Numbered from the stretch's first letter, positions 1,068 to 19,603 are shown. The stretch: DNA of 24,000 nucleotides from Arenicella sp. (GCA_047629535.1 JBLHXJ010000001.1:41975-65974), one strand, 5' to 3'. A program made the numbers and translations. The notes: generated by a model from the letters alone, not told the origin.

Positions 1068-3199
1068 AAGCCCGAGCAGAATATATTATTGGTTCGGGCG
1101 TCATTTTTGTTGGCGTGCTGTTGATGGCATTCTTCTTTTGGAAGTCTGGCGCGATCGACGATACTCGTGAGCATCAGCGCTTTGTAGAAAGTGTCCGCCA
1201 TTTGCAGGCCAGCGATGCAATTCTCGATCAGCACCTTTTACGCTTGCGCAACGGCTCGGCGACTAGCGTTGATAATGTTAACCAAGAGTTAGTTGCGATC
1301 AGCCGATTGAATGCAATTATAGCTAGGCCGCCGGATTATATTTCGCCAAAAGGTACCGCGATTTTGATGGATATTTTGGCAAATTATCATCTGGTGATGG
1401 AGCGTAAGAAATTACTAATTGAGCGCTTTATGGCTGAAAATGCGAATCTTAAAACATCTATTGTGTATTATCCGATTTTGAGTCAAGAGCTGGTAGATAG
1501 CTTAGACGAGATTGAGCAAGGCCAACCTATTACCGAAAAAATACAGACGCTTTTGCGTGATATTTTATTGTTTAACCTTAATACCAACCCTGGTTTAGGT
1601 ATTTCAATTAAAAGCCAAATTGGTCGGCTCGATGCGGCTGGTCAAGCTTACCTCATAGGTGCAAACGCAACGAGCTTGAATTCGATTAGAGGAATTGAAG
1701 ATCTAAGCTTGCAGGGGCAAACGATTCTGCGGGTGAAGCCTGGAGTTGATTCGCTTATTACCGAACTAATGTCGATACCGATAACGGTTGAGCTCGAGAG
1801 CTTTGCAGACGAATACCACCGCTGGTATAGCTATGCGCTAGACAGTGCCAAGTTTTATCGTTTTTGTTTGTACTTTATGATTGTTCTGACAATCATAATT
1901 ATTTCCTGGATGATTATTCGAAACCTTAATGCCCGCATAAGGCGCGCGACCCAATCTATTGCACAACAACGCGATCAGTTAGTAGTCAAACTCGATGAGC
2001 GAAGGGCCCTATCTGAGGTGGCCATGGCGGTCAGTAGCGTTGGTGATCTGAACAAGGTATTAGATACCATATTAGCAAAGAGTCTTGAGGTGGTTGAGGT
2101 CGAAGCAAGCTCCATATTGTTGCTCGATAAAGAGAAAAATGATCTCTATTTTCATACCGTGCAGGGCCGAGTCTCTGACAATCTTAAAGATATACGCATC
2201 GCGTTAGGTCAAGGCTTGGTAGGGCATGTTGCTCAAAACGGCAAAACGGAGGTAGTTTCTGACCCTTATGCGGACCCACGTTTTAACCAACAGGTAGATA
2301 TTGCTACCGGCTTTGTTACCAAATCAATTCTGACAACACCGCTGGTAAGCCAGGATGAAATCATCGGCGTGTTACAGTTGGTAAACCGTCGGCAACAAGA
2401 GTCGTTTGATGATAACGACGTGCTACTAATTGAATCATTCGCGGTACAAGCCGGTATTGCAATCGTAAATTCGCGACTTTATTCCGACGTTAAAAATTAT
2501 GCCAACGACCTTAAAGAGTCTCTCGAAAAAGAACGAACCTTAAGAGTTCAGAAGCAGAAAATGGGTGCTTACATGCCTAAGGATGTGGTCGATCAGATAT
2601 CACGTAGCAGCGAAGAAAAAATCGCTCTTGGTGGTAAGGTAGTGCGCGCCACGATTATGTTCTCAGACATTGTTGGTTTCACCCGTTTGTCAGAACGCTT
2701 GGAACCAGAAAAAGTAGTCGATTTTTTAAATCTTTACATGACCGCGATGAGCAACATCATAGAACAAGAGGGTGGCATTGTAGATAAGTTCATTGGCGAT
2801 GGCATTATGGCCGTTTTTACTGACAGTGAAACTGAGCAGGCAATGGCGGCGGTGCAAGCGGGCTTGAGAATGCAAGCCGCGGTTCAGAGCGAACGAGAAA
2901 GCTGGGGTAGCATTGATCAAGATTTGGCTAAGGTGGAGATTCGTATTGGTATTAACTCCGGCCGAGTAATATCCGGTAATGTAGGGTCCGAACAACGAAT
3001 GGATTACACCGTGATTGGCGACAATGTAAATGTCGCAGCGCGAATCGAGCAAGCGTGTAATCCCGGCGAAGTACTTATTAGTCTATCTACTTTTGAAGAC
3101 GTCAAGCTGCGAGTTAAATCGACCGAAATGGAGCCAATTAAAGTGAAAAATCGAGATCAGGCTGTCCTAACTTATTCAGTCGACTCAGTGTTGTCTTAG
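1064..3199 (+). CDS. Membrane sensor protein: periplasmic helical domain - GAF - class III adenylate cyclase
   Basis: ATG 1064 overlaps the upstream TGA (ATGA at 1064-1067). Two predicted TM helices (aa ~8-27 and ~263-287) bracket a helical extracytoplasmic region of about 235 aa. A GAF-like region spans aa ~316-468 (nt ~2009-2467). The cyclase homology domain spans aa ~525-700 (nt ~2636-3163) and contains FSDIVGFT, DKFIGDGIMAVF and DYTVIGDNVNVAARIE (metal Asp, Asn/Arg). The Lys575/Thr648 pair suggests ATP as substrate (class IIIb-like). Confidence 0.9.
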   Translation: MKARAEYIIGSGVIFVGVLLMAFFFWKSGAIDDTREHQRFVESVRHLQASDAILDQHLLRLRNGSATSVDNVNQELVAISRLNAIIARPPDYISPKGTAILMDILANYHLVMERKKLLIERFMAENANLKTSIVYYPILSQELVDSLDEIEQGQPITEKIQTLLRDILLFNLNTNPGLGISIKSQIGRLDAAGQAYLIGANATSLNSIRGIEDLSLQGQTILRVKPGVDSLITELMSIPITVELESFADEYHRWYSYALDSAKFYRFCLYFMIVLTIIIISWMIIRNLNARIRRATQSIAQQRDQLVVKLDERRALSEVAMAVSSVGDLNKVLDTILAKSLEVVEVEASSILLLDKEKNDLYFHTVQGRVSDNLKDIRIALGQGLVGHVAQNGKTEVVSDPYADPRFNQQVDIATGFVTKSILTTPLVSQDEIIGVLQLVNRRQQESFDDNDVLLIESFAVQAGIAIVNSRLYSDVKNYANDLKESLEKERTLRVQKQKMGAYMPKDVVDQISRSSEEKIALGGKVVRATIMFSDIVGFTRLSERLEPEKVVDFLNLYMTAMSNIIEQEGGIVDKFIGDGIMAVFTDSETEQAMAAVQAGLRMQAAVQSERESWGSIDQDLAKVEIRIGINSGRVISGNVGSEQRMDYTVIGDNVNVAARIEQACNPGEVLISLSTFEDVKLRVKSTEMEPIKVKNRDQAVLTYSVDSVLS

Positions 3200-3323: not shown

Positions 3324-4169
3324 ATGAAAACACCGAAAAGACTATTGCCGCTGATTGAAGACGGCTTGGTCGACGAAGTCCTTGGTCAACTGATGAGTGG
3401 CAAAGAAGCCACTGTGTATATGGTGCGCTGTGGCTCCGAGGTTCGTTGTGCCAAAGTGTATAAAGAAGCCGCACAGCGAAGCTTCAAAAAAGCAGTGCAA
3501 TACCAAGAAGGCCGTCGTGTGCGTAATAGCCGCCGCGGCCGGGCAATGGAAAAGGGCTCTAAGTTTGGACGCGATCAACAAGAAGAAATTTGGCAAAGTG
3601 CCGAGGTAGACGCCTTATATAAACTTGCCGCCGCTGGGGTGCGAGTGCCAGAGCCCTACGGTTGCTTCAACGGTGTGCTGTTAATGGAGTTAATTACCGA
3701 TGAAGAAGGCTACGTAGCACCGCGTCTAAACGACGTGGAACTAAGCCCAGAACGAGCGCGGCGTGACCATGCCGTGGTTATGCAAGACGTTATTAAAATG
3801 TTATGCGTTGGCCTAATTCATGGCGACTTATCTGAATTTAATGTGTTGGTTGATGAAGTTGGCCCGGTAATTATCGACCTGCCACAAGCCGTTAACGCGG
3901 CGGGTAATAACAATGCAAAAGCCATGCTCGAACGAGACGTGCGCAACATGACTAACTACTATGGCCAATTCGCACCTGAATTACTCGAGAGCGAACACGC
4001 AAAAGAAATTTGGAAGCTCTATGAAAAAGGCGACCTCAAAGCAGATACTAAGCTCACGGGCATTGTCGAAATAGATACTCGCCCAGCTAATGTCGACTCA
4101 GTAATGCTAGAAATCAAAGCGGCTTTCGAAGAACAGGAAGAGCGTTTGCAGCGATTGAGTGATGATTAG
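3324..4169 (+). CDS. RIO-type serine protein kinase/ATPase
   Basis: 281-aa ORF. It has the RIO ATP-loop motif SGKEATVY, the catalytic loop LIHGDLSEFNVL and the metal-binding IIDLPQAV. An AT-rich 124-bp upstream spacer precedes it. Confidence 0.85.
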   Translation: MKTPKRLLPLIEDGLVDEVLGQLMSGKEATVYMVRCGSEVRCAKVYKEAAQRSFKKAVQYQEGRRVRNSRRGRAMEKGSKFGRDQQEEIWQSAEVDALYKLAAAGVRVPEPYGCFNGVLLMELITDEEGYVAPRLNDVELSPERARRDHAVVMQDVIKMLCVGLIHGDLSEFNVLVDEVGPVIIDLPQAVNAAGNNNAKAMLERDVRNMTNYYGQFAPELLESEHAKEIWKLYEKGDLKADTKLTGIVEIDTRPANVDSVMLEIKAAFEEQEERLQRLSDD

Positions 4170-4183
4170 CTATAAGGCTTTGT

Positions 4184-5698
4184 TTATTTTATTGTTGATC
4201 TCTTTTCATCTGTCACCCCGATTTTGCTTCTAACAATCTCCGACTCTTGCGGGCTGAGCTCGACACTTGCATCGATTATTTTTTCAAAATGTGCTGTATC
4301 CCAAGTGTTTTCGCCACTTAAGCAATAAACATAGAGCTCGGGAAAATCTTCAATTGCCAGTTGGTCTTCGATAAAAAGCGTTTCAATTAATTTTGAATCT
4401 TCGCCTTTGCGTTTACTGTCGTAGGCCATGTTCACTGGCAGAGCGTCTTTACGACATAATACGCTGCCTTCCCATAGTCGAATATTTGAGCAATATACTT
4501 TGTTATTTTCTCGTCGGTGGATTAACCAACGAGGTAAAACTGAGGCGGCCTTATTCTGTTTTAAGGCTGATTCTAATTGCCTTGAAAGACGTGTCGGATG
4601 ATACCAATCATCGTCATCCCACTGGCAAACGAACCGGCCCTTGGCCATTTCGATCGAAAAATTGCGCAAATCACCTAGGCTTTTCTTTGCTTCGATCGGC
4701 ACAACGTGATGCCTTATTTCTTTATTATTAAGGCCCTTCAAGAACTTGTGTGTTGCCGTGTCATCAGATTCGCTAATCACGACCAGCTCTTTATGTGAAT
4801 AGCTTTGTGCCTGAAAACAATCAATAGCGCGCTCTAATAGTGCTACCCGGCCACGGGTCACGCACAAACAGGATATTAGCGGGGCTGGAGAGTTTGACGA
4901 CGACGGCTTGTCGGCCAATCTATATTTTGTTTGCTGGGCGTTAGTGGTGATGTCCTTTTGTGCAATCGAACGATAAAACGATGGTGGCCGTTCGTAATAC
5001 AGGGTTAACAGTGAGAGGTTGCGTATATAGCTCTGGGGATCAATGCCGTTAGGCTCACTTGACTGATGCCACAAATGGTAGGCAATGCCCTTAAGTGTTG
5101 CCATTTTGGTAGCAAAAAAGGCTACCCGCTTGGACATGGCGTCGTCTTCTGCACCCCAGCCTTCAAAGCGTTCATCCATACCGCCCGTCGCGTGGTAAAG
5201 TCTTCGTGTAAGGGCGAACGCTCCTCCGCAGAAGGGGGGGTATTGGCCTATCGACTGTCGGTTTGTCTGTTGCCTTGTTCTATTAATATGCAGCGATTGT
5301 GTCTGCGCTAAAAGCTGTTGTGATTCCTCCTGGCTTAGGTCAACTAAAACGTCATACGGATTGATCGCGTCTACATCGTTGTTCATTTGTTGGCAAATCT
5401 CATCTAACGCAGCTGCGCTAATGAGCATGTCTGAATCGGCGAATACCAGCCGCTCACAGCTTGCATAATTAGCGGCGATGTTCAGCCCCCAGGATTTATT
5501 GAAGCGCCCAGAATTCTCAACAAATACATACTTGATGTTAGCTTGCTGTTGGTTTTTAAATTGAGGGGTAGCGTCTTGCTCGACGAGAATTATCTCTAAG
5601 CTTCGGTCGAGGCTGAGCTGCTGTAAAAGGAAGTGTAAGTTATGTTGCCGACCTTGATCAGATTGGCGATAGGTTATTAGGTAAGAGAAGCGATACAT
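4184..5698 (-). CDS. Two-domain glycosyltransferase: N-terminal beta-1,4-galactosyltransferase-like (GT7/Glyco_transf_7C-like) + C-terminal GT2
   Basis: N-domain (aa 1-~215): ILVEQD, RFNKSWGLNIAANYA, FADSDM (DxD) and FCGGAFALTRRLYHATGGMDERFEGWGAEDDAMSKR, which parallels the beta4GalT FGGVSAL...WGWGGEDDD block. C-domain (aa ~270-504): ISCLCVTRGR, ELVVISESDD, LGDLRNFSIEMAKGRFVCQWDDDDWYHP (classic GT2). No TM segment is evident. Confidence 0.85.
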   Translation of the reverse strand: MYRFSYLITYRQSDQGRQHNLHFLLQQLSLDRSLEIILVEQDATPQFKNQQQANIKYVFVENSGRFNKSWGLNIAANYASCERLVFADSDMLISAAALDEICQQMNNDVDAINPYDVLVDLSQEESQQLLAQTQSLHINRTRQQTNRQSIGQYPPFCGGAFALTRRLYHATGGMDERFEGWGAEDDAMSKRVAFFATKMATLKGIAYHLWHQSSEPNGIDPQSYIRNLSLLTLYYERPPSFYRSIAQKDITTNAQQTKYRLADKPSSSNSPAPLISCLCVTRGRVALLERAIDCFQAQSYSHKELVVISESDDTATHKFLKGLNNKEIRHHVVPIEAKKSLGDLRNFSIEMAKGRFVCQWDDDDWYHPTRLSRQLESALKQNKAASVLPRWLIHRRENNKVYCSNIRLWEGSVLCRKDALPVNMAYDSKRKGEDSKLIETLFIEDQLAIEDFPELYVYCLSGENTWDTAHFEKIIDASVELSPQESEIVRSKIGVTDEKRSTIK

Positions 5699-5855
5699 AT
5701 AAATTCTAATTAACGAGTTGCGTCGGGTTTACTGGCGTAAGACTATGCATAACAATATAACGGATAACCGTGTCCGAGTTCTATTAGAGTAAGATGGTTC
5801 ACAGTTGCGGGCAACCGCGTTCATTTCACTGATAATTTAAATTAAAAAGTACACT

Positions 5856-6512
5856 ATGAAACAAGCGCCATCTCCACAAGTATTGATTGGCACGCCTGCT
5901 TACAATGGCATGCTGCATACAGACTATCTGCATTCGATTCTTGGTTTTGTAAAAAATGACATCCCGCATGCGGTGATGACCATTGGTAATGAGAGTTTGA
6001 TCACTCGGGCCAGGAATACAATTTTGGCCAGTTTCTGGGAGGCCGACACGTTTACCCATCTACTTTTCCTTGATGCTGATGTGTTTCTTGACCATCAGGG
6101 CCTTAGCCAAATGCTTAGCCATAATAAAGATGTTGTTGGCGCGCCAGTTTATCTGAAAGGCAAGAACGCAGACGGCGAACAAACCGCAAATACAGATGCC
6201 AAACTGAATGTTCTGCCGGTGCTTCAATCAGTAACTAGAGTTGGCACCGCAGCACTGCTGCTATCACGTTCGGCGGTTAATTCTTTGGTCGCCCACGCAA
6301 TCAAGCAAGATCGGACCTACAGCATAAATAAGATGCTTCGACATGAAGGGATGGCAACCACCCACTACGATGTGTTCAGAGTGGGTATCTCTAATGACGA
6401 GTATTTATCAGAAGATTTTTGGCTTTGCAAAGAATTGCGAGAGCTGGGTCACGAAATTCACGTCGACACCTCGGTATACACTCGCCATAACGGTATGGTC
6501 TGCTTCGACTAG
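5856..6512 (+). CDS. Small putative GT-A fold glycosyltransferase
   Basis: 218-aa ORF. VLIGTPAYNG opens a Rossmann-like strand. It also has SLITRARNTILASF and HLLFLDADVFL (DxD). I cannot assign a CAZy family by eye. It is divergent from the 4184-5698 gene across a 157-bp spacer. Confidence 0.65.
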   Translation: MKQAPSPQVLIGTPAYNGMLHTDYLHSILGFVKNDIPHAVMTIGNESLITRARNTILASFWEADTFTHLLFLDADVFLDHQGLSQMLSHNKDVVGAPVYLKGKNADGEQTANTDAKLNVLPVLQSVTRVGTAALLLSRSAVNSLVAHAIKQDRTYSINKMLRHEGMATTHYDVFRVGISNDEYLSEDFWLCKELRELGHEIHVDTSVYTRHNGMVCFD

Positions 6513-6634
6513 CGCGGTCTTAATATGAGCGCTAGTCGGTAATCCGTGGACCAGTTTTTATAGCTGTACGCTGGAATAAATTTGCCCTAGGCTGATTCGT
6601 CTAGGGCAACGGCTTCGGCGTAAGAAAAACTGAC

Positions 6635-7486
6635 TTATGCCCAGCTAGACTTCGACAAGCTGAAATTAAACGCAACGTTTGAATTTGCTGGCATAGGCGT
6701 GGTTGGCATAGGCGTTGTTGGCATAGACGTGGTTGGCATAGACGTGGTTGGCATAGACGTAGACGTGGTAGTCGGTACGCCTGTAGTCGTTGGTGCAACA
6801 GTAGTCGTTGGTGCGCCTGTAGTCGTTGGTGCAACAGTAGTCGTTGGTGCCGCAGTGGTGGTTGCCACCGGCGCGCAAACTGGATCAGACGAAGAGACAG
6901 TAAATGCTCCAGTTTCACCTAAGCCACTAATGGAACCCGTAGCCGAAGTTGGCACAGTCGCGCTGTTAAGCGTTGCCGTCACTGTAAAGCCAGAGTGCAA
7001 ACCCACAACGCTTACTGCGGTGCCGTTAACAGAGCCTTTTTGAACATCAACTTCATTATTATTTAGAGTCAATGAAACGGTTGCAACGCCGGCTTCAAGT
7101 GTGAGCAGTACGCAACCGCCATTTAATACTGTAATGGGCGCTTCTTCGGCATATGCCTGACCAATGAAAATATCCAGAATATCGTTAACATCAACGCCGT
7201 CATTTTCAGCCTTGGATATCGATATGCCGCCGCCGCCGCCCATTACTACAACAGCAGCACTGGTTTGTGCATGGCTTGGAAGTATTACCGCGTCAAGTAA
7301 TGGCTTTTTCCATTTATCAGGGACTAAGCTAGTTGAAATAACCGCGCCGCCGCCAATTAAGGTATTTCTTAATACTGTACGTCTAGCATTCTTCTGCTCT
7401 ACACCAACAGCTAGCTCTTGTTGCTCAGCTGATTTAGACGAAGGTGTCGCTTCGCTACTCAATGAATCATTTGTATCTTTAGGCAT
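6635..7486 (-). CDS. Exported protein with twin-arginine-like signal and C-terminal Thr/Pro-rich mucin-like repeat tail
   Basis: The ORF is open to TTG 7549, but the first ATG is at 7486 (MPKDTND...), and using it removes the overlap with the divergent gene. ARRTVLRNTLIGGGAVISTSLV is followed by LPSHA|Q, a possible signal-peptidase site. A central region of about 130 aa is rich in Gly/Val/Thr and carries 2 Cys. The tail is APVATTTAAPTTTVAPTTTGAPTTTVAPTTTGVPTTTSTSMPTTSMPTTSMPTTPMPTTPMP (62 aa, 27 Thr), followed by ANSNVAFNFSLSKSSWA. Confidence 0.75.
   Translation of the reverse strand: MPKDTNDSLSSEATPSSKSAEQQELAVGVEQKNARRTVLRNTLIGGGAVISTSLVPDKWKKPLLDAVILPSHAQTSAAVVVMGGGGGISISKAENDGVDVNDILDIFIGQAYAEEAPITVLNGGCVLLTLEAGVATVSLTLNNNEVDVQKGSVNGTAVSVVGLHSGFTVTATLNSATVPTSATGSISGLGETGAFTVSSSDPVCAPVATTTAAPTTTVAPTTTGAPTTTVAPTTTGVPTTTSTSMPTTSMPTTSMPTTPMPTTPMPANSNVAFNFSLSKSSWA
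6689..6874 (-). repeat. In-frame coding tandem repeats (15-bp x5 and 36-bp x2) encoding the PT-rich tract
   Basis: The 15-bp units are at 6690-6704, 6705-6719, 6720-6734, 6735-6749 and 6750-6764 (ggcata[g/a][g/a]cgt[g/t]gtt; units 3 and 4 are identical). They encode MPTT(S/P). The 36-bp units at 6780-6815 and 6816-6851 match at 35 of 36 positions and encode (APTTTV/APTTTG). Confidence 0.95.
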
Positions 7487-7496
7487 TTTTAATACT

Positions 7497-7524
7497 TTGG
7501 CGGTAGTTAATATGGTCTTATAAT
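7497..7524 (+). promoter_or_regulatory. Candidate sigma70-type promoter for the GT32-FkbM / mega-GT operon
   Basis: TTGGCG (7497-7502), a 16-bp spacer, then a perfect TATAAT (7519-7524), about 95 nt upstream of ATG 7620. This is a pattern match only. Confidence 0.3.
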
Positions 7525-7570
7525 AACCCGAATAATAATTGGCTGCCAAGGGCTATAGGTTAACTTCTAG

Positions 7571-7591
7571 GCTACTCTTTGCTAGAGTAGC
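7571..7591. promoter_or_regulatory. Perfect 8-bp inverted repeat (operator or 5'-UTR hairpin candidate)
   Basis: gctactct (7571-7578), ttgct, agagtagc (7584-7591). It lies in the 133-bp divergent spacer between the PT-protein gene and the GT32-FkbM gene, 29 nt upstream of ATG 7620. Confidence 0.3.
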
Positions 7592-7619
7592 GGGAATATC
7601 CCTCCAGCACCGATTGATT

Positions 7620-9437
7620 ATGATTCCTAAAATTATCCACCAAACTTGGAAAACCGATCAGGTTCCAGAGCAGTGGAAGGCATTTGCCCAGTCATGGAAA
7701 TCGCATCACCCCGATTGGGAGTATCGGCTGTGGAGCAACGCTGATGGCGCTGAGTTTGTCGAACATTTCTATCCTCATTTCGAACAGACATATTGGTCCT
7801 ATCGATACGATATACAGCGCGCTGATGCGATTCGCTACCTAATAATTTATCATTATGGTGGTATCTATGCCGACCTTGATTTTGAATGCCTGCAATCATT
7901 TGAGAGCCTACGTGACAATCACAAGCTGGTTATCGGCTTTGAGCCTAAGGAGCATGCGCAGGCTCAATCATTGCAAGAAGTGTTATGCAATGCGTTATTC
8001 GCGTCAAAGCCTCGGTCAAAATTTTTAAAAGCCGTTATTGATTTTTTAATAGCGGACGACACTCCGACGATTGGACTTGGGGATGTATTGAGAACCTCTG
8101 GCCCAGTGATGTTGCAGAATGTGTATGAGCAATTTAATAAAAGTGACGTAGATGCTCATCCGCCGGTCCGCTTTTACCCGTTTGAAAATAATGCCCCAGA
8201 ATTAACCCAGCTAGCCAAAAATTCGGATGAAAGTGAACGCATAAGGCAAAAACTGATAGGTTTGGGTTGTTTTGCGGTGCACCACTGGGCAAATTCATGG
8301 ACCAAAGATTTGGCCGGTGAACTGATGAATCCGAGCGCCGATTCAGTTGAGGGGTTTGATTTTTATCCGATGTATGATTCACCTGGGATGGATTTATTTA
8401 ACGGTGGTAGAGAGGTCGCAGCACTTGCAGAACGATGCAGAGCTGATTCTCAGGTAGTAGCGTTCAATACCGATGGCTTTGCAAAGCACACTATCGCCTC
8501 AATATCTGATTTGAGCGTAATGTTAAACGCGAATCAAAATGAAGGGATATATATAAAAAGACCCATCGCTAACGCTAAAGAGGTTTTAGAGCAGCACGAG
8601 AATATGCAACTGGTCTATATTGCCGCTGCTGGCCCTCGGCCATTTAGTCTGTTTGTCGATCAAACCAACGATCTAGTAATTGCTCAGTTTATTGAGAGTA
8701 ACCGCATTTGGGAGCCGCTTGAAACCGCCTTAGTCAGCAAGTTAGTATCCCCAGGCGAAAACGTAATCGACATAGGAGCCAACATTGGCTATTTCACGGT
8801 ACTTTTTTCGCAACTAGTGGGCGAACAAGGCAAAGTGCTGGCGTTCGAACCGGAAGCAAAAAATTACTCTTTATTAAAGGCCAATATATTAATTAATCGC
8901 TTAGATAATGTGGTTATTGAAAATCAAGCGCTGTCCAATACTCAGGGAGTCGCTGATCTATACTTATCTAGTTACAATAAAGGTGATCATCGACTTGGCT
9001 ACACCGCCGGCCGAGAGAAGCAACAAATTAGCAGTATTGAGCTTGACCAATACCTGTCAGGCAACGCCCTGCCGATTCATTTTATTAAATCCGATACCCA
9101 AGGTCATGAGCTTAAAGTGCTGCAGGGTATGACCAAGTTAATTGAGCGAAATAGTGCATACTTATGCTGCTTGCTGGAATTCTCTCCAGGGTTATTGATC
9201 ACTGCAGAACCTAGAGGCGTTGAAGATTTTATCGATTTCTTTGACTTATTCGAGACCGAAATATATTTGATTCAGGAGGTGGCTCGGAACGCCGAATTAG
9301 TATTAATGGATAGCGCCGCATTGCGGCAACTGGCGCGCATAATGTTGCAGCACGAAGCGCAAGACCATTCCGTCAATACTTTAATTTTTTTTAGCACTAA
9401 CGCTCGAATCAAGTATTTCGCTAAAATGGGTTGGTGA
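7620..9437 (+). CDS. Fusion protein: GT32-type glycosyltransferase (Gly_transf_sug, DXD) - unassigned ~70-aa module - FkbM-family methyltransferase
   Basis: The ORF-track start at 7539 is a TTG. ATG 7620 gives MIPKIIHQTWKT, the canonical GT32 N-terminus. RADAIRYLIIYHYGGIYADLDFECL carries the DXD. The FkbM region (nt ~8616-9398) has VIDIGANIGYFTV, LAFEPEAKNYSLLKANI and IHFIKSDTQGHELKVLQGM. Its stop overlaps the next gene. Confidence 0.85.
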   Translation: MIPKIIHQTWKTDQVPEQWKAFAQSWKSHHPDWEYRLWSNADGAEFVEHFYPHFEQTYWSYRYDIQRADAIRYLIIYHYGGIYADLDFECLQSFESLRDNHKLVIGFEPKEHAQAQSLQEVLCNALFASKPRSKFLKAVIDFLIADDTPTIGLGDVLRTSGPVMLQNVYEQFNKSDVDAHPPVRFYPFENNAPELTQLAKNSDESERIRQKLIGLGCFAVHHWANSWTKDLAGELMNPSADSVEGFDFYPMYDSPGMDLFNGGREVAALAERCRADSQVVAFNTDGFAKHTIASISDLSVMLNANQNEGIYIKRPIANAKEVLEQHENMQLVYIAAAGPRPFSLFVDQTNDLVIAQFIESNRIWEPLETALVSKLVSPGENVIDIGANIGYFTVLFSQLVGEQGKVLAFEPEAKNYSLLKANILINRLDNVVIENQALSNTQGVADLYLSSYNKGDHRLGYTAGREKQQISSIELDQYLSGNALPIHFIKSDTQGHELKVLQGMTKLIERNSAYLCCLLEFSPGLLITAEPRGVEDFIDFFDLFETEIYLIQEVARNAELVLMDSAALRQLARIMLQHEAQDHSVNTLIFFSTNARIKYFAKMGW

Positions 9438-12400
9438 GTATCAACGGTATAAAATACTATTCCATGCTTGAGTCATCCGGCTATGGACTGTCTGCGATTA
9501 GCTATTTGAATGCGTTGCTTGACCTCGAGTGCCCAATACATTGGATTCCACTGGTCTTGGGCGAGCGAGGTTACCAACCATGGTATCAATCGACATCGGC
9601 CGAGCAGCAAGTTCGCCAATTGCTGATCGAGTGTCTGACTGACGACAGTCAAATAGACAGACTGATGGCGTGTCTAGAGCCGATTAACAACTATCAATGC
9701 ATATTCATGCATACCGTGCCGGAGTATTGGCCTCATCTTAAAGAGCCCAATAAATATCAAATCGGCTATAGCGTGTGGGAGACTAGTTGCCTACCTAAGC
9801 ATTTTCCTGAGCTCATCAATCAGCTTGACCGAGTGCTAGTACCCAGCACATTTAATCGACCGATATACGAGCGTTCGGGGGTTGAGATTCCGATAGACGT
9901 GGTGCCGCATATTCTAAATAAGCCCGCGCCTGCGGCTAAGGCGACCGTCGATACTATGCGTAGCTTGATTGAGGTTGCGCCAGAAAACTACCTCTTCTAT
10001 TGCATCAATGAATGGACCGCTCGCAAGGCGCTATGGGTTTTGGTTGACGCCTATCTAAGCAGCTTTAGTGCTGATGACTCGGTGTCTTTAGTACTAAAAA
10101 CATCGGCTCGAGGCCCGCGATCGGAAACCGATGCAGACCAGTACGACACACAACTATTGGTGGCACAAATAGCTGCTGGCTATACTGCACCTGCGCATAT
10201 TAAAGTGATTAATCATAAAATCACTAACCCTGAGATCACCGCATTACACCAACTTGGCGATTGCTTTGTCTCTACCAGTCGTAGCGAAGGCTGGGGCTTG
10301 GGTATGTTTGAAGCTGCGGGAATGGGTAACCCGGTGATTGCTACCGGCTGGGGCGGGCATCTCGATTTTCTTACAGAGCAGTCGAGCTATCTGTCATCCT
10401 ATCAATTGACTCAAGTGGTGGATACTCAAGCTGAATCGTCCTACAGTAGCGAACAACAGTGGGCTCAAGTTGATCAAACAAGTATCTCTAAGCATTTAAA
10501 AACGGTGTTCGCCAATCCTCAATTAGCGCAGCAAAACGCTCAAGATTTGGCTCTAGAGCTAAATGAAAAGTATAATTCAGCACAGCTTGGTATACAGCTC
10601 TATAAAGCAATTATGGCAACTAACATCCCCAAGATTTTTCATTTTATATTCGGTTTGAAAGAACAAACTGAGCCGTTTCATCTGGCCTACTATCTTTGTT
10701 TAAAATCCTGCCTCGAGGTTAACAAGCCGAGCGCGCTACATTTTTACTATCATTACCAACCTTATGGTGAATACTGGGAGTTGATAAAACCTCACCTGAC
10801 GCTAATCGAAGTAGAGTTGGAATCTTTTGTAAAACACAATAACGCCTACCAAGATCACCAAGAAGGTCAGTTTATCAAGGCCGCTAAACTCGATTATGCG
10901 CATCAAGCGGATTTTATCCGCTTAAAAAAATTGATAGAATACGGTGGTGTTTATGCTGACATGGACACCCTATTTGTAAACCCAATACCGGATGATCTGT
11001 ATCAGCATCCGTTTGTGATAGGCCGTGAACAGAGTGTTATCGACCCCGTAAGCAAGAAAAAAAATCCGTCATTGTGCAACGCGCTGCTGATGTCCGAACC
11101 CAATTCAGAGTTCGCGCGCCAATGGCTAAAGGCTAGTTATCAATCGTTTGACGGAACCTGGAGTTCGCACTCGTGCCAGTTAGCGGCGACACTTGCAAGC
11201 GAGTTGCCCGATACGGTGCACATTGCGCCGCAACGTTTCTTCTTCAAGCACATGTGGACAAAGCCGGGTATTAGCTCGTTATTTGAAGAGCTTGATGATG
11301 ACTTCGAGCAAGTCTATAGCATGCATATGTGGAACCATCTGTGGTGGGACCAATCGAGAGTAGACTTTTCGAGTTTTCATCAAGGCTTGATCACCGAACA
11401 AAATATTATGACGGTAGATACCACTTATAATGTTATCGCCAGACAATTTTTACCAACAGCAAGTAAGGCAACAACTAGCCCAATTAACAAAGAGCCCTCT
11501 GAAAAATTGAAAAATTCATCCTCATCAATCTTGATTCCAGTAATAGAAGTTAGTTGGGAACTTTCTCAAGAGCAAGGTTCCAGCCGCTTTTCCAATACTC
11601 AAACGGGCCATTCCTTCGCCACTAACGAAACTACAAATTTAATTCTTCAACAGTGCGATGGAATTAAAAATGTTGACGCTATCATTGATTCGCTGAGTGA
11701 GCGCTTTGGTGATGATTTCGACAGTATAGGGCATGATGTTAAAACTACTTTGCGCGAACTAGCTTTGAGTGGCGCGATTCGATTTAAACAAATCACACCG
11801 GCTCTACCAGTTGTTCAGCCCACGCCGCCCGAGGCACCCTCAAAGCAGTACAAGTTGTGTATTGGCATGGCCACCTACGATGACTATGACGGTGTCTACT
11901 TTTCGGTGCAGGCGATGCGAATGTATCACCCAGAAATATTGGAGCATGTAGAGTTTTTAGTGCTCGACAACAACCCCACAGGCGTTTGCGCCGACGCGCT
12001 AAAAAACCTTGGTGATTGGATCCCAAACTATCGTTATATTGAAGGCGATAATTTCCAAGGAACCTGGTCTCGATTTTCCTTGATTAACCAAACTAACGCT
12101 CCGTATATTTTGTGTATGGATTCGCACGTGATGGTTTTACCCGGAGCGATTAAGCAACTGTTGGATTATATCGACATTCACCCCGACACACCCGACATGC
12201 TGCAAGGGCCACTAGTGGCCGATGATTTGTTTTCCTTGTCATCGCATTTTACGCCCGGCTGGGGTAGTGGCATGTATGGCAAATGGGCAACAGATTCAAG
12301 AGCGGAAGATCTCGACAACCCTGGGTTTGATATCCCAATGCAAGGGCTTGGTTTGTTTGCCTTTCGCAAAGATAGCTGGCCGCAAGTAAACTCACGCTTT

Positions 12401-13309
12401 AAAGGGTTTGGCGGCGAAGAGGGCTATGTGCATGAGAAAGTTCGGCGTGCCGGTGGGCGAACATTATGTCTACCATTTTTACGCTGGGTACACCGCTTTA
12501 ACCGACCGATGGGCACGCGCTATGCGCTCAGTTGGCATGATCGCATTCGCAACTATATGGTCGCGCATGACGAACTGGATGTTGATAATAGCGAGATGAT
12601 TGAACACTTCAATTCGTTTATAGGCGAGGCCGAAACCGCAACAATAGTTGCCGATGTTGAAGCTGAAATTAACAATCCATTCTACTTTTTTGATGCTATT
12701 TACTGTATCAACTTAGATCGACAAGAAGAACGATGGAAGACCGCACAGGCACAATTCGATAAGCTTGGCATTACCCATCGAGTTCAGCGTTTTTCCGCTA
12801 TTGAAACACCCGAAAATCACCATATAGGGTGTGCCTTGTCACACCGAGCAATTATTCAAATGGCATCGGTCAATAAGCACAAAAATGTATTGGTGTTAGA
12901 AGATGATGTGATCTTCGATGCGGCCACACTGACTGATCTTGCAAATAGCCTGGATGAGGCAAAAGCCGAAAGCTGGGATGTATTATATTTAGGTGGACAT
13001 TGTTGGGACAAGCGATATCCACTTGTAAGTGGGCGTGAACATTTAAGAGAACTGGTCAGTGGCGAAGTTGGGCCAACCACAACCCATGCGATTGTCTATG
13101 GCGATTCCAGTTATTCGCAACTGCTTAATGATCTTCCCGAGACTATCGCGCAGATGACAAGCGCCATTGATCAAGGGTGGTTAGCGATTGATCAGTATTT
13201 GGCCGTTGAGACAACGCTAAGAAAGCTGATAACCGAACCTAGAGTGGCAAGTCAGCCACCGCTTCTTATCCAAGAAGAAGATAGCTTTACACCGATACTT
13301 TCGGCATAG
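9431..13309 (+). CDS. 1292-aa multi-domain glycosyltransferase: GT4 - GT32 - PqqD-like - DxH GT-A (GT2/GT27-like) - GT25
   Basis: The start is TTG 9431 or GTG 9434, overlapping the upstream TGA (9435-9437). ATG 9464 would delete the first beta-strand IKYYS. GT4 (aa 1-~392): EX7E in SRSEGWGLGMFEAAGMGNPVIATGWGG (nt 10286-10312). GT32 (aa ~397-672): IPKIFHFIFG and ADFIRLKKLIEYGGVYADMDTLF. PqqD-like: aa ~704-786. GT-A (aa ~806-1045): FLVLDNNP, CMDSHV (nt 12119-12127), GFGGEEGY and WVHRF. GT25 (aa ~1085-1280): AIYCINLDRQEERW, GCALSHRA and VLVLEDDVIF. No TM segment is evident. Confidence 0.85.
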   Translation: MVSINGIKYYSMLESSGYGLSAISYLNALLDLECPIHWIPLVLGERGYQPWYQSTSAEQQVRQLLIECLTDDSQIDRLMACLEPINNYQCIFMHTVPEYWPHLKEPNKYQIGYSVWETSCLPKHFPELINQLDRVLVPSTFNRPIYERSGVEIPIDVVPHILNKPAPAAKATVDTMRSLIEVAPENYLFYCINEWTARKALWVLVDAYLSSFSADDSVSLVLKTSARGPRSETDADQYDTQLLVAQIAAGYTAPAHIKVINHKITNPEITALHQLGDCFVSTSRSEGWGLGMFEAAGMGNPVIATGWGGHLDFLTEQSSYLSSYQLTQVVDTQAESSYSSEQQWAQVDQTSISKHLKTVFANPQLAQQNAQDLALELNEKYNSAQLGIQLYKAIMATNIPKIFHFIFGLKEQTEPFHLAYYLCLKSCLEVNKPSALHFYYHYQPYGEYWELIKPHLTLIEVELESFVKHNNAYQDHQEGQFIKAAKLDYAHQADFIRLKKLIEYGGVYADMDTLFVNPIPDDLYQHPFVIGREQSVIDPVSKKKNPSLCNALLMSEPNSEFARQWLKASYQSFDGTWSSHSCQLAATLASELPDTVHIAPQRFFFKHMWTKPGISSLFEELDDDFEQVYSMHMWNHLWWDQSRVDFSSFHQGLITEQNIMTVDTTYNVIARQFLPTASKATTSPINKEPSEKLKNSSSSILIPVIEVSWELSQEQGSSRFSNTQTGHSFATNETTNLILQQCDGIKNVDAIIDSLSERFGDDFDSIGHDVKTTLRELALSGAIRFKQITPALPVVQPTPPEAPSKQYKLCIGMATYDDYDGVYFSVQAMRMYHPEILEHVEFLVLDNNPTGVCADALKNLGDWIPNYRYIEGDNFQGTWSRFSLINQTNAPYILCMDSHVMVLPGAIKQLLDYIDIHPDTPDMLQGPLVADDLFSLSSHFTPGWGSGMYGKWATDSRAEDLDNPGFDIPMQGLGLFAFRKDSWPQVNSRFKGFGGEEGYVHEKVRRAGGRTLCLPFLRWVHRFNRPMGTRYALSWHDRIRNYMVAHDELDVDNSEMIEHFNSFIGEAETATIVADVEAEINNPFYFFDAIYCINLDRQEERWKTAQAQFDKLGITHRVQRFSAIETPENHHIGCALSHRAIIQMASVNKHKNVLVLEDDVIFDAATLTDLANSLDEAKAESWDVLYLGGHCWDKRYPLVSGREHLRELVSGEVGPTTTHAIVYGDSSYSQLLNDLPETIAQMTSAIDQGWLAIDQYLAVETTLRKLITEPRVASQPPLLIQEEDSFTPILSA
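11540..11788 (+). other. PqqD-like (RiPP-recognition-element-like) domain embedded in the mega-glycosyltransferase
   Basis: EVSWELSQEQGSSRFSNTQTGHSFATNETTNLILQQCDGIKNVDAIIDSLSERFGDDFDSIGHDVKTTLRELALSGAIRF follows the PqqD-family pattern (x-LNetaaxIwxlxDGxxtvxeIvxxLxxxy...DVxxfLxxLxxxGli). It is flanked by Ser/Thr/Pro-rich linkers. Confidence 0.6.
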
Positions 13310-13404
13310 GCCATGCACACTAAATGTTGATTAGAATGCACGCATCTTGGCAAGTAATGTTTTAGTTTATCGTTTAGTTAAATAATCAGATTAAGGTGAC
13401 AATT

Positions 13405-13845
13405 ATGAAGCTTTCTACAGTTAGCCGAAGCTTAATGTTTGCCGGCCTTATTCCTTTTATTGCCGGCACAATAGCAATCGCCCTAAAGCTTGATAGCTGG
13501 TGGATTATCAACGATATTGCGATTAGTTTTGCGTTCTACGCGCTTGCTATCGCCAGCTTTATGTCAGGTACTCATTGGGCCGTGGCGCAGTTGCTCGAGA
13601 ATAGAACTGACTTGCTATTTCACAGTAACTTAATGGTTTTATTGCCGTGGATCGCATTACTTACTTTAGGTGATGGATCTACGTTCTATTTTTTCTTGGC
13701 CTTTGTTTTTTTTAAGCAATACCTGCTCGATCGAAAACTTACAAGTCAGGGGGTTTTTGGTCAACCGTATCTACGTGATCGACGAATAGTCACGACCACC
13801 GTTTGCCTGTCGATGCTGTTTGTTGCGGGCATTAATTTTTACTGA
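13405..13845 (+). CDS. Small 4-TM inner-membrane protein (DUF3429-like)
   Basis: ATG 13405 lies 8 nt after AAGG (13393-13396). The ORF track used GTG 13396. There are four hydrophobic helices and the motif SFMSGTHWA. The family call is from memory and tentative. Confidence 0.6.
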   Translation: MKLSTVSRSLMFAGLIPFIAGTIAIALKLDSWWIINDIAISFAFYALAIASFMSGTHWAVAQLLENRTDLLFHSNLMVLLPWIALLTLGDGSTFYFFLAFVFFKQYLLDRKLTSQGVFGQPYLRDRRIVTTTVCLSMLFVAGINFY

Positions 13846-14120
13846 ATGAGGCTCTCGCATAACTGCGTCAGCGGTGGCTTTTTGCCATCCGTATAACAAC
13901 ATTCGTATGTTTAATTTTTGCTTTATAAACCTCGAATACTCATGCTATGGGTGGCTTGATCAACAATTGAATAGTTAGTTGATGTAAGCAACGTTTGTTA
14001 TAAGCTCATTTATGCGCTTCGATTTTGGTTTTTATTGAATATACCGTTAAGAGCTAACTCCGGCCGTAGCCTATGATGGGGAACGAAGTTATTGTTATTA
14101 CTACCCGAATGGAACAAGTC

Positions 14121-17044: not shown

Positions 17045-19603
17045 ATGATGAATAACGCCTCTGACTCAGTTCAACAAGCGCTAAAAATAGCCGAAGCCTC
17101 CGATCACAACACCATGCTGTTAGTGCTCGGAATCACTGGCCTACTTGCCTTAGCGGTGCTGGTTGTGCCATTAGCGGCCAGGCTTAAAATTCCCTTTACA
17201 GTCATGCTGGCGGCGGTTGGTGTACTCATCGGTCTGGGCTCAGAAATTATTTTGCTCGCGCCTGGACTTGGGTTTTTACATGAATTTATACAGGCACTCA
17301 ATTCTTTAGAGATCACCTCGGATGCGGTGTTCTTTGTGTTTTTGCCGGCGCTGGTATTTGAATCTGCATTAGCCATCGATGTGCGTCGCCTGTTCGACGA
17401 TATATCGCCAATTCTGATGTTGGCAATTGTTGGCCTATTGATTTCAACAGCGGTGGTTGGTTTCACCATGTCCTATATAACCCATGTTCCCTTGCTGGTG
17501 TGCTTGTTATTGGGGGCGATTGTGTCGGCAACTGACCCGGTCGCGGTAGTTGCTATTTTTAAAGACTTAGGAGCTCCGCAGCGCTTAGCAATTCTGGTAG
17601 AAGGCGAAAGCTTATTTAATGATGCTACTGCGATTGTGGTGTTCACCATTATCTCCGCTATGCTACTAGGCCAATCTGACCCGACCTTGCTTAGTGGCAT
17701 TGCCTCTTTTGTTAAAGTATTTTTTGGCGGCATTATCGTCGGCTACTTAACGGCTCGACTGATCTGCTTTTTGCTAGTGCACATTGGCGACTCCAATTTG
17801 CCGAAAATCACACTGACCATTTCTCTCGCTTACTTATCTTTCATAATCGCCGAGCATAGCCTTCATGTGTCGGGCGTTATGGCGGTGGTGACGGCGGCCT
17901 TGGTGCTCGGCTCACGCGGGCGCAGTGTGATTACTCAGAGTGCCTGGCACGGGCTCGAGGAAGTCTGGGAGCAGATCGGCTTTGTGGCTAATTCGGTGAT
18001 TTTTATTCTGGTTGGTTTAAAAGTGCCGTCGATTATGGCGGCCATGGACAGTCAACAATTTATCTGGCTAGCGGCGTTACTACTGGCTGGGTTTACTGCG
18101 CGCTTTGCGATTATCTTTGGTTTGGTACCGGTGATGAGCAAGTTTGGTTGGTCAGCGCCAGTGAGTACTGGCTACCGAGCTGTGATGTTCTGGGGTGGTC
18201 TGCGCGGCGCGGTGTCTCTGGCATTGGCATTAGCGGTTATCGAAAATGATGCTTTTGCGCCGGAAATCCAGGAATTTCTGGGCGTCATGGTGACCGGTTT
18301 CGTGCTCTTCACCTTAGCCATTAACGCCACCACCGTGCCACTTGTAATGCGCGCCTTTGGCCTTGCCAAACTCGGCCCTGCCGATGTTGCGATTCGTGAT
18401 CGAGCGTTTTCAAAAGCCATGGTTAATGTAAGCGAGCGAGTGAAAGGAACCTCGCGCGCCTTACACATTGGCGAAGAGCGAACCAATCAGGTGGTAAAAC
18501 CCTATGAGCAACTAATTCAAGCGAGTTCAAACAAAGTCGCCAGTAATAATCTAAGTGAAGATGACTGGCTGTTGATCGGCTTACGCATGATCTGCATGAA
18601 CGAAAATAAAGCCTATGCAAAGATGTTGGATCAAGGTGAGGTTTCGCCTGATACCGCGCGTAGTCTTTTCCGCCAAGCCGCTGACCTCAGTGATAGCATC
18701 AAGCATCGCGGGCTAGATGCTTATCTAGATGATTATCGCCGCAAACTCGGTTTTCACTGGCATACCAAGTTAGCAATGAAGGTACAACGGTCTTTTGGGT
18801 ATACCCGTTTGTTGGCAAATAATTTGGCCAACCGCTTTCAGGTTCTGGAGGCCGAGTGCACCGTATTACATGAACTAAAGGGCAATGTTGCTACACAACT
18901 CACCGATATGATCGGTTCTGAGGCAACCGTCAAACTGCAACAGATATTGGCTCGTCGTGACCTTGAAACAGAGCAAGCTTTAGAAGTACTTCGAGTTTGC
19001 TATCCGGAGTACGCCAAAGCACTCGAGAAAAGAGCATTGCAACAAACCGCCATGCGCTTGGAAGAGAACCAATATAAGGAAATGATGGCGAGTTCGCTGA
19101 TCAACAAAGAAGTTGCCAGCGAATTAAAAGAGGGTATGAGCGAGCGCTATCAAGAACTCCAACAAAAACTGAGCCTCGATTTGGGACTGGATGCTAAAGC
19201 GCTGGTTGCTAAAATGAATTTCTTTAAGAACTTAGATCAAAGCGCCCAGAACGATATTGCTAAATTGCTTAAACCTCGATTAGCGCTGCCGGGCGAGGTT
19301 ATTTTTGAAAAAGGAGGTCCGCCAGATGCTATGTATTTTATTTCCTCCGGCGCAAGCAGAGTTGTATTGGACCAGCACACCGTCATTATTGGTAGCGGTG
19401 ATTGTTTCGGAGAGATGGCCTTGCTGCAACAAAAGCCGCGTATTGCCAGTGTTATTTCTGATGGTTTTAGTGAGCTTTTGGTACTGCATACCAAGGACTT
19501 TAATCAGATGCTCAATAAGGATCATGCATTGCGGGAGCAGATAGAAAAAATCGCTCAGCAACGAACTATAGAGAATCAAAGCGGCCTTCCAGCTAAGCTG
19601 TAG
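17045..19603 (+). CDS. CPA1-family (NhaP-type) Na+(K+)/H+ antiporter fused to a long helical linker and a C-terminal cyclic-nucleotide-binding domain
   Basis: The exchanger core (aa ~20-440) has VSATDPVAV, ESLFNDATAIV and WGGLRGAVSLALAL. A mostly helical region of about 270 aa follows. The CNBD (nt ~19214-19530) has LPGEVIFEKGGPPDAMYFISSG and FGEMALLQQKPRIASVIS. Confidence 0.9.
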   Translation: MMNNASDSVQQALKIAEASDHNTMLLVLGITGLLALAVLVVPLAARLKIPFTVMLAAVGVLIGLGSEIILLAPGLGFLHEFIQALNSLEITSDAVFFVFLPALVFESALAIDVRRLFDDISPILMLAIVGLLISTAVVGFTMSYITHVPLLVCLLLGAIVSATDPVAVVAIFKDLGAPQRLAILVEGESLFNDATAIVVFTIISAMLLGQSDPTLLSGIASFVKVFFGGIIVGYLTARLICFLLVHIGDSNLPKITLTISLAYLSFIIAEHSLHVSGVMAVVTAALVLGSRGRSVITQSAWHGLEEVWEQIGFVANSVIFILVGLKVPSIMAAMDSQQFIWLAALLLAGFTARFAIIFGLVPVMSKFGWSAPVSTGYRAVMFWGGLRGAVSLALALAVIENDAFAPEIQEFLGVMVTGFVLFTLAINATTVPLVMRAFGLAKLGPADVAIRDRAFSKAMVNVSERVKGTSRALHIGEERTNQVVKPYEQLIQASSNKVASNNLSEDDWLLIGLRMICMNENKAYAKMLDQGEVSPDTARSLFRQAADLSDSIKHRGLDAYLDDYRRKLGFHWHTKLAMKVQRSFGYTRLLANNLANRFQVLEAECTVLHELKGNVATQLTDMIGSEATVKLQQILARRDLETEQALEVLRVCYPEYAKALEKRALQQTAMRLEENQYKEMMASSLINKEVASELKEGMSERYQELQQKLSLDLGLDAKALVAKMNFFKNLDQSAQNDIAKLLKPRLALPGEVIFEKGGPPDAMYFISSGASRVVLDQHTVIIGSGDCFGEMALLQQKPRIASVISDGFSELLVLHTKDFNQMLNKDHALREQIEKIAQQRTIENQSGLPAKL

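Follow-up and report, generated by a model that had tools for sequence, protein, structure and literature searches.

Mucin-type O-glycosylation by N-acetylgalactosamine (GalNAc)-transferase-like enzymes is regarded as a eukaryotic trait. In Gram-positive bacteria, the serine-rich-repeat adhesins are O-glycosylated stepwise in the cytoplasm by GtfA/GtfB and further glycosyltransferases (GTs), and are exported afterwards by the accessory Sec system. PqqD has the fold of the recognition element (RRE) of peptides that are made by ribosomes and modified after translation (RiPPs), a recognised peptide-docking fold of RiPP enzymes. The 24,000-nucleotide stretch of Arenicella sp. DNA analysed here (GCA_047629535.1 JBLHXJ010000001.1:41975-65974; below, the window) encodes on its plus strand a mega-glycosyltransferase (9431–13309; below, the megaenzyme), in which four GT domains and a PqqD-like domain are joined in one polypeptide, together with an unannotated Thr-rich protein that is predicted to be secreted.

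We favour, with a probability of a little under 0.6, the view that the megaenzyme stands at the centre of a soluble, cytoplasmic module of five genes for protein O-glycosylation, and that the acceptor is the 283-residue Thr-rich protein with its (xPTTT)n repeats. The first-pass annotation of the sequence had singled out the enzyme as an oddity; it is the surrounding module and the candidate acceptor that shift the reading to a protein O-glycosylation system. In its logic the system appears most similar to adhesin glycosylation and to the multidomain GTs of chloroviruses, while its GT families and export components differ, and it would be a variant of cytoplasmic protein O-glycosylation by GTs whose genes lie beside that of their substrate. 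The proposed likeness to the serine-rich-repeat system lies in the several GTs encoded beside a Ser/Thr-rich repeat substrate and in glycosylation before export. Unlike that system, Arenicella is Gram-negative, the leader of the candidate acceptor is Tat-like (resembling a twin-arginine signal), the GT families are others and an RRE-like domain is fused to them. No GtfA/GtfB pair, SecA2/SecY2 or Asp proteins are found among the window genes, the GtfA model TIGR02918 giving an E-value of 0.013, far below its cutoff.

The N-terminal domain of the megaenzyme (9431–10615, residues ~1–395) contains the EX7E glutamates E286 and E294. Judged, like all Pfam matches of this protein, against the gathering score, it matches GT4-conflict (PF20706, residues 245–382) with 42.2 bits for a cutoff of 26. 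The best Foldseek match of its AlphaFold2 model is chlorovirus NY-2A B736L (PDB code 3oy2, E 2e-10), followed by retaining GT4 enzymes, and 3oy2 is also matched at the sequence level. The profile match, the GT-B fold of two Rossmann domains and the EX7E motif all place the domain in GT4.

The second domain (10616–11500, residues ~396–690) is a GT32-type GT-A domain with the DXD motif D510-M-D512 (YADMDT). It matches Gly_transf_sug (PF04488, residues 465–524) with 38.3 bits against a cutoff of 23, and also PF05704. Legionella SetA (8x4k), an effector that glucosylates proteins, is found both by sequence (E 1e-5) and, together with the toxin domain YeGT (8ovt), by fold. This domain is the most conserved portion across relatives, and D510-M-D512 is invariant in 15 of them; profile, GT-A fold and DXD motif agree in assigning it to the GT32/Gly_transf_sug group.

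Between Ser/Thr/Pro-rich linkers at residues ~690–720 and ~795–808 lies the PqqD-like, RRE-like domain (11576–11815, residues ~716–795), which matches PF05402 over residues 723–781 with 33.3 bits against a cutoff of 23.4 and scores below the cutoffs of the NCBIfam PqqD models, which are equivalogs. Its AlphaFold2 model has beta strands at residues 700–731 followed by three helices at 733–779, the three-strand, three-helix winged-helix arrangement of PqqD and RRE domains. The residues F, N, L, Q-C-D, V, I and L are invariant among orthologues.

The third domain (11855–12655, residues ~809–1075) is a GT-A domain of the DxH type, denoted GT2dxh, which matches Glycos_transf_2 (PF00535, residues 813–919) with 31.1 bits against 23.3. 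Its motifs D897-S-H899, GFGGEEG and W-x-HRF (here W-V-H-R-F) are invariant in 30 diverse homologues. Foldseek aligns it over ~260 columns to the polypeptide GalNAc-transferases ppGalNAc-T2/T4/T10/T12, PGANT9 and Toxoplasma GalNAc-T3, with E-values of ~4e-13 and a root-mean-square deviation of ~4.3 Å. GFGGEEG and the His of W-x-H-R-F presumably correspond to the Gal/GalNAc-T motif and to the distal His ligand. The D-S-H tripeptide forms the Mn site of Toxoplasma GalNAc-T3 (TxgGalNAc-T3; PMC11074326).

The C-terminal domain (12692–13306, residues ~1088–1292) matches Glyco_transf_25 (PF01755) with 40.2 bits against a cutoff of 24 and contains E1157-D1158-D1159, the Glu-Asp-Asp motif of GT25. In the L-E-D-D-V motif of 30 homologues the Glu is invariant and both Asp are at least 90% conserved. 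A sequence profile reaches human COLGALT1 (E 7e-8) and mimivirus R655, and COLGALT1 (9evj, E 2e-20) is also the best fold match of the C-terminal module, with both GT-A domains aligned. In COLGALT1 the E-D-D motif is the catalytic Mn site (PMC12003778).

The AlphaFold2 model of residues 687–1292 (predicted local distance difference test, pLDDT, 87.5; predicted template modelling score 0.78) shows a domain of three or four strands and three helices followed by two GT-A domains; that of residues 2–700 is of fair quality (pLDDT 76.8) and shows a GT-B followed by a GT-A domain. Since none of the 19-residue windows of the megaenzyme exceeds 1.3 on the Kyte-Doolittle scale, the protein is predicted to be soluble, with no membrane helix. 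The first-pass annotation had proposed four GT families and a PqqD-like module on one soluble chain, and this description holds: all five domains score above their Pfam thresholds, the predicted folds run GT-B, GT-A, winged helix, GT-A and GT-A, the Ser/Thr/Pro-rich linkers are where it had put them, and its catalytic residues (E286/E294, D510/D512, D897/H899, D1158/D1159) are correct and invariant in six orthologues. By sequence and model, three of the four GT domains, DxH, GT25 and GT32, appear to resemble protein glycosyltransferases most closely.

Comparison with the GalNAc-transferases of family GT27, such as human GalNAc-T2 and Toxoplasma GalNAc-T3, reveals a similar GT-A catalytic domain at 16–19% identity, the D-S-H metal motif and a downstream invariant His, whose equivalence is deduced rather than superposed. 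As far as the sequence can tell, the DxH domain thus has the GT-A fold, the DXH motif and the distal His that provide the Mn ligands in GT27. Both are associated with Thr/Pro-rich tandem-repeat acceptors, in Arenicella a putative one. The Arenicella domain differs in having no ricin-type lectin domain, no membrane anchor and no secretory-pathway location: it is a cytoplasmic bacterial domain and shares its chain with PqqD and the three further GTs. The megaenzyme has no ricin or lectin match in Pfam and no transmembrane (TM) segment, and hence neither the lectin domain nor the type II topology of GT27. Membership of the DxH domain in GT27 proper was considered and rejected because the lectin domain and the membrane anchor are absent. 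The domain may work in the manner of GT27 enzymes, and a transfer of GalNAc from UDP-GalNAc to Ser/Thr would be in line with its genomic coupling to Thr-rich ORFs.

COLGALT1 (GLT25D1) shares with the C-terminal module the tandem arrangement of two GT-A domains, aligned over ~580 columns (E 2e-20), and the E-D-D motif in the C-terminal one; it is a protein glycosyltransferase, as proposed for the Arenicella enzyme. However, its N-terminal GT-A domain is non-catalytic, while the corresponding domain in Arenicella keeps the full DxH/His site, and its acceptor is hydroxylysine, whereas the Arenicella system has no lysyl hydroxylase.

Soluble polypeptides with several GT domains are also described in chloroviruses, where PBCV-1 A111/114R, which contains three GT domains, and A064R build a protein-linked glycan in the cytoplasm (PMC7826918). 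The Arenicella enzyme has the same soluble multi-GT character, and the closest solved structure to its GT4 domain is a chlorovirus GT. The viral enzymes, in contrast, make N-linked capsid glycans, are without PqqD and have another set of domains.

Fusions of an RRE to a PF00535 glycosyltransferase have been flagged by genome mining with RRE-Finder as putative RiPP enzymes, and in the papers found none is characterised (PMC7470986, PMC12710340). As in RRE-fused tailoring enzymes, the PqqD-family domain of the megaenzyme is N-terminal to catalytic domains, and related loci carry RiPP accessories, namely discrete PqqD, NTP_transf_5, sulfotransferase and radical SAM proteins. The difference lies in the putative substrate, which in Arenicella is not a short peptide but a folded secreted protein of 283 residues, with a leader that resembles an export signal common to many proteins. 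A literature search covering RRE with GT, threonine-rich RiPPs, bacterial GT27, Arenicella, and phage Thr-rich proteins with GT returned no characterised family member, and no account of either the leader or the phage gene pair discussed below.

The open reading frame (ORF) of the megaenzyme is uninterrupted over 1292 codons from TTG 9431. The stop codon of the upstream gene (9435–9437) overlaps GTG 9434 as GTGA, and the JGI gene call (P0197), of 1291 residues, has the same length as the product from this GTG; the NCBI call (MFT6406639.1) begins at ATG 9464 and has 1281 residues, while the residues GIKYYS upstream of this ATG are kept in orthologues. The GTGA overlap, the orthologue residues before the first ATG and the 1291-residue JGI call make GTG 9434 the probable true start, which would give a protein of 1291 residues. 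Translation of the megaenzyme gene is probably coupled to that of the upstream gene. A promoter and terminator scan of 4000–14100 gave counts no higher than in shuffled sequence. The G+C content of the window is about 45%, and a 100%-identical protein match is annotated as from an Arenicella sp. metagenome-assembled genome (MAG) of the Gammaproteobacteria.

That an assembly or sequencing error has joined separate genes into one long ORF was a concern of the first-pass annotation, and would be compatible with the metagenomic source and with a sister lineage (L007/L008) in which each half has its own gene. However, the identical protein is found on two contigs and a 1291-residue member on a third, the positions of the inter-domain linkers are conserved, and six orthologues (P0002–P0006 among them), with 72–78% identity and 98–100% coverage, keep one unbroken frame and come from different samples and assemblers. 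Since these orthologues on independent contigs with different flanking genes keep the fusion, a frameshift, chimeric join or other artefact is excluded for practical purposes, and the fusion is genuine.

The complete four-GT fusion is limited to one Arenicella-like clade, in seven 90%-identity clusters. In the sister lineage, GT4-GT32 (805 residues) and PqqD-GT2-GT25 (600 residues, opposite strand) are two genes, and the locus additionally encodes a PqqD-GT25 protein and a separate FkbM methyltransferase; a further relative (L006) is without the GT4 domain. The megaenzyme is therefore a genuine lineage-specific fusion of a [GT4-GT32] and a [PqqD-DxH GT-A-GT25] module. The C-terminal (PqqD)-GT2-GT25 module is far more widespread, with 12,493 matches at E ≤ 1e-3 and 1,481 at E ≤ 1e-30 among 1.84 billion representatives, and more than 2,000 matches at about 50% identity in a 90%-clustered database. 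Many of these relatives add PqqD, TPR, methyltransferase, sulfotransferase or GT10 domains. The earlier description of the fusion as very unusual is thus right for the combination of four families, which is rare, and not for its C-terminal module, which forms a large family. Multi-GT fusions as such are not rare either, and the statement that they are known mainly from giant viruses was wrong: bacterial proteins of 1,300–2,170 residues combining GT2, GT4, TPR and methyltransferase domains are frequent among the matches of the GT4 side.

The candidate acceptor is encoded on the minus strand (6635–7486), 283 residues from ATG 7486. The NCBI entry (MFT6406637.1, “hypothetical”) has 304 residues from TTG 7549; orthologues align only from about ATG 7486, and the annotated N-terminus is, judging from this alignment, probably 21 residues too long (window 7486–7549). 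Neither Pfam nor NCBIfam scans assign the protein to a family. It consists, in order, of a polar N-terminal region, the motif A-R-R-T-V-L-R (R35-R36), a Gly-rich h-region, a conserved stretch, a domain of ~130 residues bracketed by two Cys, repeats, and a tail. The repeats (6689–6877, minus strand) are mucin-like, rich in Thr and Pro, and made of APTTT/MPTT units, with DNA tandem repeats at 6689–6760 and 6774–6850; the final 80 residues of the protein contain 27 Thr, 9 Ser and 13 Pro. The number of repeats varies between orthologues, while the tail NFSLSKSSWA is conserved.

The tail region (6638–6690), PANSNVAFNFSLSKSSWA, is conserved in Arenicella-type orthologues, and most orthologues have N-x-S/T sequons at this place. 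The region could function in sorting or as a further site of modification.

Residues 1–73 of the acceptor (7268–7486, minus strand) form a leader that resembles a Tat signal, with the twin Arg in A-R-R-T-V-L-R, a weakly hydrophobic h-region, LIGGGAVISTSLV, and a predicted cleavage site S-H-A↓Q. The conserved stretch that leads to this site reads PDKWKKPLLDAVILPSHA before the cleavage and QTS after it (also written PDKWKKPLLDAVILPSHAQTS). In the leader alignment (A3), R-R, W, P and P-x-H-A-Q are invariant, and the c-region is unusually long and conserved, which suggests, at the level of sequence, a dedicated recognition or processing factor. A leader profile gives 103 confirmed occurrences in GTDB genomes, spread over Arenicellales, where one genome has several, Poriferihabitaceae, Desulfobulbaceae, Syntrophobacteraceae and further groups; there is no Pfam or NCBIfam model for this signal.

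The consensus of the leader family, in which RRxVL(R/K) is followed by a Gly-rich h-region and then by W-x-K-P-x-x-[DN]-[SA]-V-x-x-P-x-H-A-Q|T-S, is found on about 100 very diverse small secreted proteins. These occur as up to four tandem paralogues per locus and at several loci per genome (L012–L089; for example L016, 7136–9383, and L018, 6933–10202).

The first-pass annotation had suggested an assembly line that would elongate a tethered substrate processively. Docking of a substrate is plausible, since PqqD has the RRE fold and the module also encodes a possible substrate whose leader is conserved. We infer the identity of the acceptor, the order of sugar additions, the binding of the leader by the RRE-like domain and the export route as follows. 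The PqqD/RRE-like domain would first dock the acceptor, the probable contact being the stretch that separates the h-region from S-H-A↓Q, whose length and conservation make it the candidate docking site; the candidate docking peptide is VPDKWKKPLLDAVILPSHAQTS. Recruitment of the acceptor by this domain is suggested by its position directly before the initiating domain in both the fusion and the split-gene lineage. The ppGalNAc-T-like DxH domain would then add the first sugar to Thr. After that, the remaining domains of the megaenzyme (GT25, GT32 and GT4) and the module's three further GT proteins, seven GT domains in all, would lengthen the glycan and, with the FkbM domain, which would methylate a sugar, cap it. 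The glycoprotein would finally be exported and its leader removed by a type I signal peptidase. A twin-arginine-type route, to which the RRxVLR motif alone points, would permit export of the folded and already glycosylated protein.

The three other GT proteins are encoded near the acceptor gene. The double GT-A protein (4184–5698, minus strand, 504 residues) contains Glyco_tranf_2_2 and Glyco_transf_7C (ADSDM) followed by GT2 (WDDDDW). The small GT-A-like protein (5856–6512, plus strand, 218 residues, LDADV) shows weak Pfam matches to GT21 and Anp1. The gene directly upstream of the megaenzyme (7539–9437, plus strand) encodes 632 residues, in which a GT32 domain with the DXD motif YADLDF is fused to an FkbM-family methyltransferase. 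The genes for the double GT-A protein, the small GT-A-like protein and the acceptor are conserved in all modules. The GT32-FkbM gene occurs in L001, L006, L013, L015 and L038, and in the L003–L005 sub-lineage it has decayed to a remnant between the acceptor gene and the megaenzyme. In Arenicella-like contigs the module is kept as a unit while its flanks vary between contigs. Because each GT domain retains a DXD-type motif, the module is predicted to comprise eight active GT domains and one methyltransferase.

The GT32-FkbM remnant, a short tblastn match (E 7e-20), lies at ~8480–8997 in L003, with counterparts in L004 and L005, so that one tailoring gene has decayed there.

The module may instead build a non-protein glycan, such as the core or O-antigen of lipopolysaccharide (LPS), a glycolipid or an exopolysaccharide, in which case the Thr-rich neighbour would be unrelated cargo. 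The public annotation of the megaenzyme is “glycosyltransferase involved in cell wall biosynthesis”, the Pfam entry for GT25 speaks of LPS biosynthesis, the double GT-A protein gives weak, sub-threshold matches to the TuaG, WcaA and EpsD models, and PmHS2 is among the fold matches of the C-terminal module. We nevertheless consider such a function quite improbable. Domain scans of the module and of the whole window reveal no priming transferase, flippase, polymerase or exporter; a ligase and TM segments are likewise missing from the conserved module. A non-protein glycan would leave the peptide-binding PqqD domain without a role, and would not account for the Thr-rich gene being the sole non-enzyme gene of the module and always kept. 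Nor does it fit the pairing of the DxH GT family with Thr-rich ORFs, which recurs in phages and in bacteria of other orders.

This pairing is seen in three separate settings, namely the Arenicellales modules, RiPP-like clusters of Desulfobulbaceae and Syntrophobacteraceae, and uncultivated tailed phages. It was examined from the side of the leader in 78 loci fetched of the 103 occurrences, a protein being classed as Thr-rich if a stretch of 12 residues includes 6 Thr or more. Of the 30 loci with a Thr-rich leader protein, 17 carry a DxH GT or the Arenicella module, as against 1 of the 48 Thr-poor ones (Fisher p 2.7e-8); when only loci of 14 kb or longer are taken, the numbers are 10/20 and 1/22. 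In a Syntrophobacteraceae MAG, a 100-residue ORF with the same leader, followed by TTTTSTTTSTTTS... (also written TTTTSTTTSTTTSTTTSTTTT), is directly upstream of a PqqD-FucT_N-GT2-GT25 gene, and genes for a discrete PqqD and for NTP_transf_5/sulfotransferase proteins are close by. Desulfobulbaceae loci contain two Thr-rich leader precursors beside a DxH GT, NTP_transf_5, a B12-radical SAM protein and signal peptidase S26, the last adjoining the leader-bearing precursors in L063. The precursors of these related loci have 100–130 residues and a core of nearly pure Thr. In further bacterial loci, TPR repeats or an HPr-kinase-like domain stand in place of PqqD as the partner fused to the DxH domain, or a discrete PqqD is adjacent, which fits a DxH catalytic core served by interchangeable substrate-binding modules.

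The neighbours of the two Thr-rich leader peptides in the Desulfobulbaceae locus L063 (8948–9661; 6078–7235; 418–1770), namely S26, NTP_transf_5 and a B12-binding radical SAM protein, suggest further modifications and a dedicated leader peptidase.

In viral contigs of IMG/VR the DxH domain is a stand-alone gene of 263–335 residues with 42–53% identity (408 confirmed matches). Among 80 loci fetched, with at least 8 Thr in 12 residues as the threshold, 55 have a hyper-Thr-rich ORF directly upstream, in the same orientation and separated from the DxH gene by about 18–20 bp. One such pair (L115; 4336–4983 and 4992–5834) follows genes for a Gp10-like baseplate protein and an Mtd_N tail fibre, inside the baseplate/tail-fibre module. 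No match was found when the DxH domain was compared by tblastn with 50,697 cultured-phage records, and the viral relatives are known only from uncultivated (tailed-phage) contigs.

The Thr-rich partners in the viral loci (L094–L173) have 94–1659 residues and usually end in C-x4-C-N-K-L-G-F/Y.

Several observations weigh against the proposed glycosylation of the 283-residue protein by the module. Related genomes and related phages enter the association counts, which so overstate independence. The coupling of the DxH GT to Thr-rich proteins is not universal: near five more distant (PqqD-)GT2-GT25 loci (L009, L010, L090–L093) there is neither a leader-bearing nor a Thr-rich ORF. By Pfam the DxH domain belongs to GT2, whose enzymes are inverting, whereas those of GT27 are retaining. 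The Tat assignment consists of the RRxVLR motif only, and Pfam and NCBIfam scans of the acceptor give no match to a Tat-signal hidden Markov model. The mature parts behind the leader are very diverse and mostly Thr-poor, and many leader proteins poor in Thr, of which an Arenicellales genome has several, have no GT in their vicinity. Being borne by so many diverse Thr-poor proteins, the leader is a general, lineage-restricted signal rather than one dedicated to a RiPP.

The same breadth of the leader family is compatible with glycosylation of a peptide or protein in trans, on scattered leader proteins or on a small unannotated RiPP precursor, or with PqqD as a mere spacer. Arenicellales genomes contain many leader-bearing proteins at scattered places, some relatives in which this leader class occurs have TPR or HPr-kinase-like modules and not PqqD, Syntrophobacteraceae and Desulfobulbaceae use a short precursor, and the RRE-GT fusions were flagged in genome mining as RiPP enzymes (PMC7470986, PMC12710340). 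A RiPP is made from a short precursor of leader and core, which is modified and then cleaved; related loci have such short precursors, and the candidate in the window has 283 residues and a folded domain. Its orthologue stands at a fixed position in every orthologous module, the split-gene lineage has two acceptor copies and two PqqD-containing GTs, the PqqD sequence is conserved among orthologues, and the window contains no further small leader-bearing ORF. We therefore judge modification in trans, or a spacer role of PqqD, to be unlikely, and retain the co-encoded 283-residue protein as the candidate acceptor.

Two of the loci without a Thr-rich ORF show other neighbours. In L092 a 65-residue ORF (7094–7291) beside a PqqD-GT2 and PqqD-GT2-GT25 pair has a divergent RR leader (E-R-R-E-A-M-K-K, an h-region and KVPAQS) and a short Cys-bracketed core, CVPVGTATCP, and may be another type of precursor for (PqqD-)GT2-GT25 enzymes. 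In L009 a 483-residue CxxxCxxC protein, which is radical-SAM-like (9922–11373), is encoded beside the PqqD-GT2-GT25 gene.

A broader and rather doubtful proposal is that the DxH domain is a prokaryotic and phage counterpart of mucin-type O-glycosylation, and that the RRE-like domain binds the Tat-like signal and holds the protein on the scaffold of four GTs until it is glycosylated, as a form of “proofreading” before export. The ppGalNAc-T-like family would then initiate glycosylation on Thr-rich secreted proteins, RiPP-like peptides and phage tail-fibre-associated proteins. If true, a widespread bacterial and phage family that shares the catalytic architecture of GalNAc-T-like enzymes and is encoded beside Thr-rich tandem-repeat proteins would be the prokaryotic counterpart of mucin-type chemistry, its soluble, leader-guided enzymes could serve to produce mucin-like glycoproteins in bacteria, and RRE-glycosyltransferase fusions, so far seen only in genome-mining surveys, would obtain their first functional context. 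A possible link between signal-peptide recognition and post-translational modification ahead of export is thereby raised. The fused enzyme and its natural split version in the sister lineage bear on whether fusion gives substrate channelling.

The remaining genes of note lie outside the module. A bacterial RIO-type kinase is encoded at 3324–4169. A DAHL-GAF-adenylate/guanylate cyclase at 1064–3199 and a Na+/H+ exchanger with a C-terminal cyclic-nucleotide-binding domain at 17045–19603, 14 kb away, could form a cyclic-nucleotide signalling pair.

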